A DNA stretch of 64,000 bases from NCBI GenBank assembly GCA_973895155.1, contig OZ316896.1, positions 8,019,539 through 8,083,538 of the forward strand, in the 5' to 3' direction. The DNA is from Marsupella aquatica (taxonomy: Eukaryota; Plantae; Marchantiophyta). Position numbers and translations under genes: made by a program. Below, piece after piece: positions 2,194 to 14,941 of the stretch (positions are counted from its first letter, which is position 1; the number at the start of each line of letters is the position of its first letter). The notes under the pieces are model-generated. The model saw nothing but the letters and a program-made list of their open reading frames with translations, made no database searches and had not been told where the DNA came from.

Positions 2194-2894
2194 CATTGCA
2201 CTGTCCTGTCACATCGGTCAACAAGTAGAATGTAGTCAATGCACTGCACTGCACGCGACTGGTCGCGTGACCCTAGAGGTACCACACATACCGGCAACAG
2301 ACTATGCATGGTCCGTCAGTCATTTCAAGTGAATGAGAACGACCACAATCAATTACAATCAATCATTTCACATCCACTCAGAACAAATGAGTGGACAGTA
2401 CCAGTTTACCAATGAGTGGACACTAGACAATCAGTAACTACTGAGGACTGTAATGCTAATAAGCGCCAGTAAAATGTTCGTGAACTGCATTGTCCTGTCA
2501 TGACCGTCAATAAGTAAGCAGAATGTAGTCAATGCACTGCCCTGCACGCGACTAGTCGCGTGACCTTAGTCAGAGGGTGTAGGGATAATAGGGTCTACGA
2601 TGTAGAAGCTAGAAGCCTAGGCCCAAACTCTAGCTTGTACTTGGTACTTCATAAGTAAGATACGATTGCGCGTGAGACAGGAAGATACAATTACGGATCT
2701 GAAGGCATCACACATACCGGTAACAGATTATGCATGGTCCGTCAGTCATTTCAAGTGAATGAGAACGACTACAATCGATTACGAACAATCATTTCAACTC
2801 CACTCAGAAAAAATGAGTGGACAATACCAGTTTACCAATGAGTGGACAGTACCAGTTTACCAATGAGTGGACACCAGACAGTCAGTAACTACTG
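2194..2894. repeat. Imperfect direct duplication upstream of the transposase; each copy has one palindrome
   Basis: 2194-2444 recurs as 2488-2568 plus 2708-2894; palindromes at 2252-2269 and 2545-2562. Confidence 0.8.
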
Positions 2895-3209
2895 ACCCTC
2901 ATAAGAAATCTCAGTACTTCACTAGCAATCAGTATTCCCGGGGTGGTTTCCAAACATGAAATTAAAGCCATAATTAGAGGACAACTGAATTTCCCGCCAA
3001 TTCCAATACACGCCAGTCAAACGTGCACTCTCTTCTAGAAACCACTATGTACAATGACTAGTGGAGACTAACAGTATAAAGCATTGAGATGATCCCTACT
3101 GCTCATTCCCCCATGCATTCAACTTTCTGGCTACTGGATAATTTATTCGCACATCAGCTCTCTCATTTCCAATTCTTAGTCTCGGTCAGCATCTCTTGTT
3201 TGAAGGGCG

Positions 3210-10192: not shown

Positions 10193-13100
10193 ATGGATCC
10201 TACCAGAACTTCAAAGCGGAAAAGAGACTCATCTAAAGCTGCTTCTCGTAAGAAAGCCAAGACAAAAATGACTCCCGCGGAGACATCCATACTTGCATAT
10301 CGAGGAAAGTCAATCAGAGAGAGAACAACGGAGACAAAGAGTATCCATCTCTTTGATTCGATTGAGATATCCAATTTTGGAATAGTCGTTTGCAATGGGG
10401 CTGTCCGTCTTGTGGTGGCAAAAAATGATAAAGCTACAATTTTGGAGAGATCACAAATTCTTGGATGTTTCTTTGAGAAGAACATGAAAGTTAAAGAGTG
10501 TACAGAGAGATTGGTTCTGCTAGTCAGCGACGACCAGCAGGAGGACAAAATAAGTATTTGTTTGGATCAAACGCAATATGTAACCTTCAATCAGCCCAGA
10601 ATCAATGATCTTCTAGGTGCAAGGCACGCCTTGGAAAAAGTTACTAGTGTGGGATATCCTTCCAATCCAGAGGGATCAACGGGAGATTTGATTTGTCAAT
10701 ACATTATTGACATACTTGAGTTCTAGAGAGTTCCTTTCAACCAGGGATTTCGCTTGGGAAAGCCCCCCCAGTGACCAAGGTTGAAGTATACTCGGCGGAG
10801 AATCTTCCAAAAGTAATTACCTCAGCGAATGTCGGGGCTTTGTTCGATTCTTTCCTCAAAGAATATAGTGTTGTGAATATATTTAACAGCAAGTCATTTT
10901 TTGTTGAGACATCATGTTGTCATCTTGCACCGGACCACATCAAGTGCCGAGAGTGGAATCAGGATTACATAGATAGGCTAAAGAATTCACTCCTCTCTCA
11001 TTCGGCTATAAAGTTTGAAAAGCAATGCTGCTTTTTAGTCCTTGTGAAGTGGGTTCAGTCGGAGGCCGACAGAGATCCCGACTACAATGGGACGCCCTAT
11101 GATTCGGCGCCAACGGAGGAGGACATTATGACCAATCATTTTTGGATACTCAGAGGCCAGCACACAATAATGGCGTACAAATTGCTGAAAGAGGATGACA
11201 AAGTCAGCCAAGTTGTACGAGACGCATGCGGTACTATAGAAGCTGTAATGTTTTGGGCAACGCTCAACAACGACAATAATGTTCATTTGATGGGACTATC
11301 GAAGGCTCTGAACCACTATCATCAAACATCAATGGAAGAATGACAGTTTCTCACCATTATACGACAGTGTCGTAATATCTGGAACTCATTTGGGTGGCCT
11401 GGATCACATTATCGTCATCCAAATTGGAAGGTATATAAATAACCCTCTTCGATCACATTATCGTTTAAAATTTTGTCACACGAACGGTCGCGTCAATCTT
11501 AGAATTTTTCTCACGTGAACGGTCGCGTCAATCTTAGAATTGTCATGTTTCCATTGTTTTTCAGGTATTTATGAGAGCTACGAGTTTTGTTTGTCCATGG
11601 GCTCAAATGGGGAAGAACAAAATGATGAAATTTGGAGAATTGGCTCCGTTTCTCTTTACAATGGAGGATGAAACATTCAAGAAGTGGATGGAGGTCTACA
11701 AACTATCAAGGACAAGAGAGCTTGTAATTTACAATGGAATTTTATAGAGGGACGCCGTCAAAATTGCGGATGATCCTTGTGCTTATCATCTTCTGAAGAA
11801 GATGTTCTGTTCTTGTCAAGGGTGCTCGGACTTGGGTCTTCGAAAGGCAGCGGAATATATGTTGAGCGGAAGATTGTCTATACTAAAAAACCGAAGCATC
11901 AAAGTAAAATCTGGGAAGGCGAGGAAGTCCTCTAAGGCTCCAGTGTTGTCAACGACCAGCATGAGTTTGGAGCAATTATGTATAAAGACGAAGACAAAAG
12001 TTGAGTTTGAGATTTTATTATCAACGAGGATACATCCACCCGGACGAAGCTGAAAAGTCTGACAGATTCAGCGCGGAAATTGTGGGTCAAAGGAATGATT
12101 GATCGCTTTAAGCTTGACAAGATGGTGCTGAAGTAGTTGAGAGATGCGCTGAGTGGTTATCTAAAGAAGTGCTTAATGTAAATATTAGTAATGATAATTT
12201 GTTAAAAGAGATCAACCCGATATTCTATAGGTTGGTGGAAGGAATACAGAAATCAGTTGATAGTCAAGGAAACCAACTAGTGCGGCCAGTCGGTGAGAGG
12301 CTAAAATTGCGATCCCTGCAGGATATACAAAATACTGGGTTTACAGACTGTATCATACGTGAAGACAAGAACCTTGCAAGCTTGATTTATTTTGATTCCT
12401 CATCAATGGGAGATTTGCGTCCGCCAAATTGCTCATTCTATGAGGGGTTATTTTGTGCTACTAGCGAGATAGGGGCAAAACCACACCATGTGGTTATTAT
12501 TGTAGCCTCTCCCGTTGAGTCTTATGTAATCAAACAGGAATTAGGGAAGTACACACACTACGTTGCTGTCGATAGCCATTATATTCAGAAGCGGCCGAAG
12601 GAGAAGAAGCTTATTGTAACCTACACTTTTCACAGCTTGGCCTTCAGCACAATGGGCGATCCACAAGCCCGCAAGTTCCAATTGGTCTCCAAATATCAGA
12701 TTGAGAAGATAGCCAATTTTGAAGAGAGCGGCGAGTACACGACACCTTCCCCAGAAAAGATACTTCCATTCTTTGAAAGTATTGTTAGTCAATTCGTCCA
12801 ATGTGGGGAATGGGCTATATGCTTCGGCGAGGGAACGAACTTGATCTAGTGCTTAATGGTAAGTTTTGAGATTTATATTTTGGGGTTTCAATTTTAAGAT
12901 TATTTAGATTTTTATATTCTCAATTAATATTGTGAACTAATTTCGGCTTTTTTTACAGGATGCTAGATCCAATGTAAAATATTATTGCCCTGTGGCAACG
13001 CATAGGGAGTTGTCTTGTTTCTTGCAACACACCACGACGACAATTGATACAACGCTGTCATTGATTGACCCAGTATGGGCTAGTATAGAAAAATGTATAG

Positions 13101-14941
13101 ATAAATTAATGAAGTACCGTCCCTCCGTAACTGCTCTCAGAGCTGATGTTTTGGATATCCTCCACAAACAACATATCCCTGATAATATTTTTAATCAATT
13201 ATTGCAAGAGTATGCCCTCTCTGAAGATTCCGATCAATTGTACATTCGACCAACGGAGTACCCTCGTGGGCCAATCCAAGGTAGGTTACTTTTGAACCCT
13301 CTTACTTTTTCTTGCGTCACGCGAACATGCGCATGGACATTCTTAACATTTCTTTTCACATGAATATGCGCGTGAGTCATTCTTATCTAATGATCTGATT
13401 TTATTCAGATCAAGCCGACTGCGGCTTCAATATTGAGGATGCAGGGAGCAATGGTGATGCGGATGGTGAGGGGTGATGGAAGGTGACGCGGAAGGTGACG
13501 CGGATGGGGATGTCAATGACCAAGATCCAGAGTGGATGACCGATACGTAGAACGACGTCGGAGATTCCAACAATAGCGAGGAAGAGAGTGACGGAGAGGA
13601 GATGAAGGACGCTGAGGACGCTGATGAAGAGGACGAGGAGATGGAGGGTTCTGATGTCCTCGACATGAGGCGGACCGAGAGGAGGCGGCCCGGCAGAGGA
13701 GGCCAGAGAGGAGTTGGCCCGGCAGGAGGAGGCCCGGAAGGAGGCGGCCGGCAAGAGGAGCTTCAAAAGAAGGAAGCGGCCCGGCAGGAGGAGGCCCGAC
13801 AAGAGGCGGCCCAGCAAGAGGAGCTTCAAAAGAAGGAGGCGACCCGACAGGAGGAGGCCCGGTAGGAGGCGGCCCAACAAGAGGCGGCCCGACAAGAGGC
13901 GGCCTGGCAAGAGGAGCTTCAAAAGAAGGAGGCTAAGAAGAAAAAGGCGGCAGCTAGAAAAGCAACTGCCGCAAAGAAGAAGGAAAAGCCAACGCTGAGA
14001 AAGCCCAGGCTGAGAAAGCCCAGGCTGAGAAAGTGGAGGCGGAGAAAGCCCAGGCTGAGAAAGCCCAGGCTGAGAAAGCCCAGGCTGAGAAAGCGGAGGC
14101 TACAAGAGTCCTTTTAGTGATAGAGGCAAATAGGGCCAAGGCGGAGAGTGTGGCGGCTGAGAGGCTGCTAGCCGAGAGGATGGCGGACGAGATCGAACAG
14201 ACCGCAAGACCGGAGAGGGTAGGCGGAGAAGGTGGAGGCAACGAGGAAGGAGGCCGAGAGGGCCAAGGATCTTTCGCTTATTCCTGAGGCAAACATCTAC
14301 CAAAAATAAAGCTGAATTTGAAGAAGCCTTCTTCACCCTCAGTTGCAGTTAAGAAGACAATATTAGACTATTTTCTTCGCCCGGAGTTTGAATTTAACGA
14401 TCCACCCTTAAGTACGGTCTCATTGGATGATTGGAATAAATATTCACCGAAGCAGCTCCATGTCCAGGCTGTCCTTGCTTTGCAATATTGGAAGGGTCTT
14501 TTGATTACCGAGGAGAAGACTACCACTGCATCCAGAATGGAGACAATCATCAATAATGTCCACTTTTTCAAGAATCGAGTGCAAGACTTGGGAACGTCTT
14601 TGGCACCAGACTCGGCTCAAGTCGTTAAGAGACTAACAGATGACTTGACTTGACTGGGTTCGTGGTCTCGACCCCGATATACTGCAGAGGTCACTCGCGC
14701 AGAAATTGTGGCACCGAATATTTTGGAATTGGATTCCCAGATTGTGGAATATTTAAATCAAATGCCACAACCATTTGAAGGTCTTCCCGCCTCATCGCTC
14801 CAACCTTCGCAAACTGGTCCGGTGGAGCGATCACTACGGTCTCGAGGAGGGCTGAAGGATGTTGTTGCAAAGGAGGCACCCAAGAGATCAGCTGCGAAAA
14901 GGCCGGATCCACCCAATCCAAAGGTCATTCGCAAGCTATAA
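10193..14941 (+). pseudogene. Multi-exon gene: ParB/Srx-like domain, degenerate amino-MTase-like domain, acidic and coiled-coil repeat tail
   Basis: ParB-like FWILRGQHTIMAY in 10771-11343; MTase-like remnants LIYFDSS and FESIVSQFVQCGEWAICFGEGT in 12169-12849; GT-AG introns 11431-11564, 12859-12958 and 13281-13408; several stops and frameshifts. Confidence 0.6.
13680..14100 (+). repeat. Coding 15-bp minisatellites (EAARQ and AEKAQ pentapeptide repeats)
   Basis: Repeated gaggcggcccggcag and gctgagaaagcccag units. Confidence 0.85.

Follow-up and report, generated by a model that had tools for sequence, protein, structure and literature searches.

A CpG-dense palindrome confined to one high-copy giant DNA transposon that also encodes a predicted ParB/Srx-fold protein

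What is a short, CpG-dense palindrome for when it recurs again and again in the non-coding parts of one transposon? The question arises from a 64,000-nucleotide stretch of the liverwort Marsupella aquatica (contig OZ316896.1, positions 8,019,539 to 8,083,538 of the forward strand; hereafter the window), a eukaryotic-looking region rich in transposable elements, with reverse transcriptases, integrases and GT..AG introns. The 18-bp word CACGCGAC-NN-GTCGCGTG occurs here in two perfect copies, at 2252 and 2545, and in many imperfect ones, and a sequence-only reading of the window had singled it out as a motif that appears to be maintained and whose binding could be methylation-sensitive. We find that the palindrome marks a large, high-copy DNA transposon, decayed in the window, one of whose genes encodes a protein with a predicted ParB/Srx fold, and we weigh the tentative idea that such a protein binds the sites.

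The feature is real and strongly non-random. With at most two mismatches to the 18-bp palindrome (written out as a probe, the site is ACGCGACCGGTCGCGT) the window holds 8 copies, and with at most four it holds 22, every one within 2252–13335, whereas 100 dinucleotide-preserving shuffles of the whole 64 kb gave 0.83 per window on average and never more than 4; the motif is thus clearly enriched over background. At five mismatches the signal reaches chance, with 7 matches outside this region vs 6.96 per shuffled window, and copy 13357, which has five, is counted solely because it is the tandem partner of 13318, for a total of 23 sites. The common core ACGCG-N6-CGCGT behaves in the same way: all exact matches (9/9) fall inside 2000–13400, and with at most one mismatch 18 of 19 fall at 2253–13334, where 0.29 would be expected in the window. 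A lone half-site, CACGCGAC, lies at 2042 inside a transposase-like open reading frame (ORF). No palindrome site was found in the remaining 52 kb of the window, whose DNA consists of other repeats with no evident host gene.

The sequence-only reading fares well on these points. The motif is present at every start coordinate it had listed, and its description of the copies as all non-coding is true against gene-strand ORFs of at least 80 aa; site 8310 is overlapped by a 97-aa minus-strand ORF (8238–8531) that is probably spurious. We also scanned viral contigs with a 16-mer of the motif and obtained nine loci, of which L003, the sole two-match locus and the only one inspected, looks unrelated: it is AT-rich, and the word lies within a repeated intergenic stretch.

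Alignment of the 23 sites gives the consensus T-T-N-A-C-G-C-G-A-C-[C/T]-[G/A]-[G/T]-[G/T]-C-G-C-G-T-G-A, in which A at positions 1 and 6, C at 14 and T at 16 are invariant (23/23). At the four core CpGs all 19 deviations are C>T or G>A changes, and the centre dinucleotide is CG, TG, CA or TA without exception, a pattern that would fit a fifth, decaying CpG; the picture of a CpG-dense motif decaying from CG to TG or CA, first drawn from the letters, is borne out. Other genomic copies of the element mostly read G at 11480 (A>G) and C at 11516 (T>C), which restores CGCG in both sites of the first intron of the ParB-like gene described below. The two halves of the site are unequal, the left reading ACGCGA in all 23 and the right GTCGCGT in 9 and [GG/TG]CGCGT in 14. 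Wherever a context has unlike halves, the weaker half ([G/T][G/T]CGCGT) is on the right (5/5), and the sites therefore appear to be oriented, in the same direction as the plus-strand genes.

The sites occupy a small number of settings. Both perfect ones (2252–2269 and 2545–2562) lie in the divergent intergenic region between a minus-strand transposase-like gene (222–2137) and a plus-strand ORF of 180 aa (3210–3752), the first of them 127 bp from the minus-strand ATG at 2125, on its upstream side, and the other in the second of two copies of a ~230-bp unit. This region also carries a second repeated word within 2383–2895, made of 25-nt units (AATGAGTGGACA.TACCAGTTTACC) in 2.5 tandem copies and more. 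On the other side of ORF 3210 follows a 256-bp tandem array of 4.9 units (3997–5241) holding ten sites, at 4014, 4130, 4270, 4385, 4526, 4641, 4782, 4897, 5038 and 5153, which confirms the earlier count of two per unit. A cluster of five (7933, 7983, 8063, 8172 and 8310; 7933–8327) stands upstream of the first of three F-box-like ORFs and 1.9–2.3 kb upstream of the ParB-like gene, with four sites in repeat units 50–109 bp apart and the last, 8310, 58 bp before the ATG at 8368. Over this 7.9–8.5 kb cluster summed contig depth rises to ~6–10 times the level elsewhere in the element, and joints within it gain or lose units of 68–188 bp; the length of the array therefore differs between element copies.

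The remaining six sites accompany the train of plus-strand genes that follows. Those at 8926–8943 and 10126–10143 begin 7 and 9 nt past the stops of F-box-like ORFs 1 and 3 (8917–8919 and 10115–10117), right after them as had been claimed, and lie 75 and 67 bp before the ATGs at 9001 and 10193; together with 8310, they place a site shortly before three of the four plus-strand starts between 8.3 and 10.2 kb. The last four lie pairwise in the ParB-like gene, 11477 and 11512 in intron 1 (11431–11564, plus strand; 134 nt, GT..AG, phase 0) and 13318 and 13357, 39 bp apart, in a putative intron 2 (13281–13408, plus strand; 128 nt, GT..AG). The claim that they form pairs within introns of this gene is accordingly well supported by homologues for intron 1, whereas intron 2 is read from splice-site letters alone. 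All six sites of the gene train (8926–13357) are followed 2–9 nt later by TCT[T/A]A (as TCTAA 8 nt after site 8926 and 9 nt after site 10126), vs none of the 17 others (0/17), the background being 5.6% of 25-nt windows.

Some side observations attach to these gene-train sites. The TCT[T/A]A word resembles a branch point, and site 8926 is directly followed by GTATGT. A possible 78-nt intron at 10114–10191 (GTAATT...TTTCAG) encloses site 10126 and would drop the stop of F-box-like ORF 3, fusing that ORF in frame with the ParB-like ORF, an arrangement that may be chance (the frame would agree one time in three).

How many independent occurrences do the 23 sites represent? Local duplications reduce them to ~9 sequence contexts: the ~230-bp unit (2197–2425 / 2486–2851) carries 2252 and 2545, the 256-bp array accounts for ten sites, the repeat units at 7933–8172 for four, a 35-bp tandem duplication for 11477 and 11512, and a 39-bp tandem pair for 13318 and 13357. 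The original figure of about 20 copies was therefore right as a number but does not stand for 20 independent events. Between contexts, ungapped flanks of 30 nt on each side show an identity of 0.285 (maximum 0.55; n = 229 pairs), which is the chance level, vs 0.784 for the core, and a MAFFT alignment of 11 sites, each taken with 90 nt of context, has a mean column identity of 36% and invariant columns in the core alone. The flanks do differ between clusters, as the sequence-only reading had it, and the possibility it had raised against itself, a dispersed miniature inverted-repeat transposable element with conserved flanks, is rejected on the same figures. As a separate observation, ~40 contigs per run in two sequencing runs match just a 52-bp piece at 2609–2661 and diverge to its left and right; the piece resembles the tip of a different repeat family that has inserted into the second duplicated unit.

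To what, then, do the palindromes belong? Contigs of three runs (two organisms) match 1900–13500 and 1–20000 in thousands of short pieces that are 88–99% alike, and a fourth run (third organism) holds a little of the element sequence. Contig depth, which here is summed depth and not copy number, is roughly even across 1–14674 in the three runs, which makes the palindromes part of one element longer than 15 kb. The stretch with the sites is thus, as the sequence-only reading had not noticed, a single large, high-copy DNA transposon whose left end lies beyond the window and whose latest possible right limit is 15118–15120, where an unrelated repeat begins, unless that repeat is a nested insertion. 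Comparison of the window copy with the family in run X1 gives 141 A>G and 138 T>C differences vs 27 C>T and 20 G>A, with A in the window copy where the others read G and T where they read C, and 21 of 38 listed transitions are at ancestral CpGs: the window copy is dead, decayed by CpG deamination. Scans of metagenome and viral contigs guided by protein sequence found no related locus, and a search of the literature on ParB, transposons and algae led to work on Ectocarpus and Bostrychia but to no description of this element or palindrome.

We then considered which product of the element might read the sites. The plus-strand spliced gene at 10193–13280, in the window a pseudogene copy, is predicted to encode a ParB/Srx-fold domain preceded by an N-terminal PH/PTB-like one, and it may extend into same-strand ORFs as far as 14941. 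Its first exon matches the 418-aa protein P0001 at 38% and 61% identity to two ORF pieces, and this split match reveals that the window copy has acquired a stop and a frameshift at ~10724–10770; further lesions are a TGA at 11341 and a TAG at 11745. The family is small, with 24 representatives among 1.84 billion proteins in a full HMMER search, none of them named, and a word-index search with the exon gave one match. Intron 1 is well supported because predictions for the homologues mostly diverge right after 'KWKV', where the window has GT at 11431, and because one homologue, P0025, spans the position of the intron without the 134 nt.

Further downstream the gene is less legible. Pfam searches of the ORFs at 11748–14938 gave no match at E ≤ 0.01, to a 2-oxoglutarate (2OG) oxygenase or methyltransferase domain or to any other, and a protein search with the ORF at 12169–12849 found no homologues. 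On the gene strand beyond these exons, 13600–14280 carries coding-like repeats of 15, 30 and 63 bp, rich in Glu, Arg, Lys, Ala and Gln, a stretch that is open in several frames in the decayed copy.

The fold assignment comes from predicted structure. An AlphaFold (AF2) model of P0001, with a predicted local distance difference test score (pLDDT) of 81, contains a PH/PTB-like domain at residues 30–179 (Z ~5) and a ParB/Srx-fold domain at residues ~209–375. Foldseek places two ParB structures, 7bm8 (E 0.026) and 7bnr (E 0.09), at ranks 1 and 2, and in a wide structural search ranks 1–6 are all of the ParB/Srx fold (SerK, SbnI, Atu1540, KorB, PadC and sulfiredoxin), with Z 6.3–7.9, which being under 8 is middling, root-mean-square deviations of 2.8–4.5 and 77–98 aligned residues; KorB is at rank 4 with Z 6.5. 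By these models the product of the gene at 10193–13280 has a ParB/Srx fold. DUF3723, a language-model neighbour of the family (score 0.93, 155 shared features), amounts to no more than a lead, and its Pfam model hits 0/27 family members.

Our favoured reading, which we hold tentatively and to which we would give somewhat less than an even chance, is that the palindromes are binding sites of an element-encoded protein, probably the ParB/Srx-fold one. A dimeric element protein would bind T-N-ACGCGAC-CG-GTCGCGT-N-A, the predicted binder being the ParB-like protein of the same element; binding would regulate the transcription of element genes, or shield the element from silencing, and cytosine methylation of the four to five CpGs per site would switch it off. 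Control of transcription is proposed because three sites lie 58–75 bp before start codons, and methylation would be expected to block binding because each site holds that many CpGs. In support of this reading, the sites all fall in the non-coding parts of a single high-copy element longer than 15 kb, in ~9 unrelated contexts, and the gene for the ParB/Srx-fold protein of that element has sites in its introns and upstream of it. By analogy, the constant orientation of the sites resembles the same-orientation arrays of VANDAL21. A bolder version, in which the ParB-fold reader coats or marks only the unmethylated copies of its own family, so that methylation-gated self-recognition decides which copies stay active, seems to us rather unlikely; if true, KorB-OB would have a counterpart in eukaryotes, and VANC anti-silencing an analogue based on ParB.

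A number of points weigh against the favoured reading. Many of the 23 sites are local duplicates, explicable without selection, and the 5/5 orientation result is statistically weak (two-sided P ~0.06). The earlier label of a ParB gene holds for the fold of the predicted structure but not for curated sequence models, as 0/27 family members match ParB models of Pfam (E ≤ 0.1) or NCBIfam; likewise, the family profile has no match among PDB sequences at E ≤ 10. The nucleotide-binding box of ParB is arginine-rich, of the GERRxRA type. All eight aligned family members (8/8) instead share an invariant box without arginine, W313 I314 G317 Q318 H319 T320 I321 A323 Y324, and a distant member has D-G-Q-H within it; with W-I-x-G-G-Q-H-T-I-x-A-Y in place of the arginine box, a cytidine triphosphate (CTP) clamp of the ParB/KorB type is unlikely. 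Moreover, in ParB the reading of DNA does not fall to the ParB/Srx domain alone; in the canonical ParB/KorB clamps a helix-turn-helix domain after the N-terminal one reads the palindrome. Pfam gave no match to a DNA-binding domain in the downstream exons of the ParB-like gene, and the model of P0025, which covers the next exons, has a pLDDT of 39 and is unusable. Other candidate binders exist in or for the element, namely ORF 3210 with its cysteine pairs, the transposase and host factors. Finally, the window copy is a pseudogene, and the present function of the sites is not deducible from it.

Among other explanations the one that survives best, unlikely as we think it, is that a host transcription factor, a dimer on ACGCG-N6-CGCGT, reads the sites as promoter or enhancer elements that the transposon has accumulated. 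Words with a CGCG core are factor sites in several eukaryotes; a possible likeness of the site to CGCG-box, MluI-box and NRF1-type factor sites plays no part in this weighing. The sites 58, 75 and 67 bp before three of the four plus-strand starts in the 8.3–10.2 kb gene train speak for such a factor, as do the two perfect sites in the divergent intergenic region. Against it stand the ten sites of the tandem array, which is downstream of a gene, the four sites within introns, and the lack of any in the other 52 kb of the window, though that DNA is made of other repeats.

Alternatively, the sites might act as small hairpins on the transcript or on single strands, for instance in the control of splicing of element genes, which we consider quite improbable. 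The six gene-train sites do lie in introns or possible introns, each followed by TCT[T/A]A, the orientation is constant, the invariant part matches a 5-bp stem (ACGCG/CGCGT) enclosing six central nucleotides that vary more, and the folding energies of the sites, taken as DNA, are -5 to -7.4 kcal/mol. Yet no compensatory pattern accompanies this stem, since all 23 sites have A at position 6, whereas the mirror position 11 has T in 9 of them and G in 14, and the 17 sites in arrays and upstream regions show no sign of being transcribed introns. No better a prospect is that the sites are transposase-binding repeats such as occur near the ends of many DNA transposons. CpG-bearing short repeats are bound by the transposase near the ends of Ac and En/Spm, and the two perfect sites adjoin the transposase-like gene; the sites are, however, dispersed through 11 kb or more of the interior, lying between genes and within introns rather than gathered at an end, and the last 1.7 kb on the right, up to the possible end at 15118, are free of them; the left end falls beyond the window. 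As for a functionless palindromic word, spread by segmental and tandem duplication and now decaying, it would suit the reduction of 23 sites to ~9 contexts and the strong C>T and G>A excess of a dead copy against its family, but is improbable given that nine contexts with chance-level flanks still have a common 16-nt core (~0.3–0.8 expected in the window) and that placement is non-random relative to genes and introns.

The transposase-like gene is decayed and cut by the window edge, and its three minus-strand ORFs (222–725, 719–1882 and 1886–2137) match the 621–626-aa proteins P0002 and P0035 and, weakly, Pfam DUF7869 (E 0.001). Its language-model neighbours are DUF7869 clusters (score 0.82), one of them with an 11% share of a DDE transposase family, which is a lead only. 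Judged from these sequence matches, the DUF7869-type gene is likely to be the element's transposase. A family-library search gave no EnSpm/Plavaka match for it, and a literature search on DUF7869 found nothing. Over 1–2000 the observed/expected CpG ratio is 0.27, and summed contig depth there is like that of the rest of the element. ORF 3210–3752 contains a CxxC...CxxxxC stretch and has no family match in a Pfam search.

Three plus-strand ORFs, at 8368–8919 (183 aa), 9001–9552 (183 aa) and 9587–10117 (176 aa), precede the ParB-like gene. F-box and F-box-like Pfam models hit all three paralogues (3/3), but every hit falls below the curated cut-off (13.5–18.1 bits vs 20.5–24.3; E 0.0023–0.07), so that the earlier name of F-box ORFs survives only in a weaker sense. 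The three are 22–24% identical, with IWP and K-W-x-x-x-V as common columns.

To the right of the element the window holds other repeats. The one beginning at 15118–15120 is ~30 times more abundant than the palindrome element; its two copies (15120–18149 and 49281–52283) are GC-rich, 3031 bp long and 91.6% identical, and a search with their ORFs gave no family matches. One contig links 19839 back to 15118, and the unit 15118–19839 thus also occurs head to tail. Inside it, at 19281–19560, is a tandem array of ~12 copies of a 22-bp unit (TAGTTGGTG.AACTACTATGCG), unrelated to the palindrome. Farther on, 27511–36693 is a long terminal repeat (LTR) retrotransposon with 333-bp LTRs (27511–27843 and 36363–36693) that are 95.5% identical. 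It carries on one strand, in this order, a C5 cytosine DNA methylase ORF (32074–32727; PF00145, E 4.6e-12), a reverse transcriptase (33167–33862) and an integrase (34530–35534), in a region with an observed/expected CpG ratio of 0.28–0.49. To our knowledge, retrotransposons carrying a DNA methyltransferase are rare.

Why the pairing of palindrome and ParB-like protein matters is best seen beside what is known. Little is understood of the ways in which giant DNA transposons regulate themselves and evade silencing, and only VANDAL/VANC has been worked out experimentally; ParB-like accessory genes beside inverted-repeat arrays were first noted in 2025, in algal transposons, without any test. The present locus offers a testable pair, a palindrome of 16–18 bp with four to five CpGs and a small, unannotated ParB/Srx-fold family. 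If the protein binds the site and methylation blocks it, the pair would reveal a means by which a transposon can sense the epigenetic state it is in, and it would supply a sequence-specific tool for chromatin targeting.

The best-understood functional analogue, by layout, is VANC21 of VANDAL21. In Arabidopsis, the short motif to which VANC21 binds is enriched in non-coding portions of VANDAL21, where it forms dynamic tandem repeats of a single orientation, both upstream of VANA21 and within introns of VANB21 and VANC21 (PMC5735166). The likeness is almost point for point in the aspects that this source describes: a dense, element-specific motif restricted to non-coding DNA, fast-changing tandem repeats, one orientation, and sites in accessory-gene introns as well as upstream of genes. 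Unlike the candidate here, VANC does not have a ParB fold, its motif YAGTATTAY is non-palindromic and has no CpG, and VANDAL elements are Mutator-like; the loss of methylation was shown there by experiment, whereas for the present element such an effect is only a proposal.

Bacterial mobile elements offer a further parallel. KorB with its OB sites on plasmid RK2, VirB and BisD are ParB-family regulators of such elements (PMC11790492, PMC10770331, PMC12409273), and as these sources portray them the present system would be alike in that a ParB-family protein of a mobile element would use palindromes, at and away from promoters, for gene control. Those proteins are bacterial and CTP-dependent, however, and here the arginine box is replaced by G-G-Q-H-T.

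Eukaryotic ParB-like accessory genes come closer in kind. The Ectocarpus element Sola1-1_Ec32 has an accessory gene that combines a ParB-like domain with a DNA methyltransferase, and whose protein the authors propose to bind its own element (PMC12477816). It is likewise a giant DNA transposon with a ParB-like domain in an accessory gene, but it has another transposase type, palindrome arrays are not described in the sections of that source drawn on here, and no methyltransferase domain was found in the ParB-like gene of our element.

The closest published layout, as far as the descriptions allow comparison, is that of the red-algal Plavaka (EnSpm/CACTA) giant transposons, in which PAG3, a protein with a ParB-like N-terminal domain (best hit 7BNR), is encoded beside tandem inverted-repeat arrays; Petroll et al. 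suggest in their preprint that PAG3 binds its own transposon (10.1101/2025.02.11.637652). From the parts of that preprint concerned with these elements, the two share a giant, very abundant DNA transposon with mostly degenerate copies, an accessory protein with a weak ParB-like domain that has the same 7BNR among its best hits, and inverted-repeat arrays near the ParB-like gene (here the ten-site array, the five-site cluster and the intron sites). They differ in that our transposase-like gene is of the DUF7869 type, that Pfam searches found here neither a 2OG-oxygenase domain nor PAG1 or PAG2 (methyltransferase plus SET) genes, and that sites here also stand singly before start codons and in introns. 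The design of palindromes plus a ParB-like protein thus belongs to a recently described kind, in a type of transposon that differs from the published cases.

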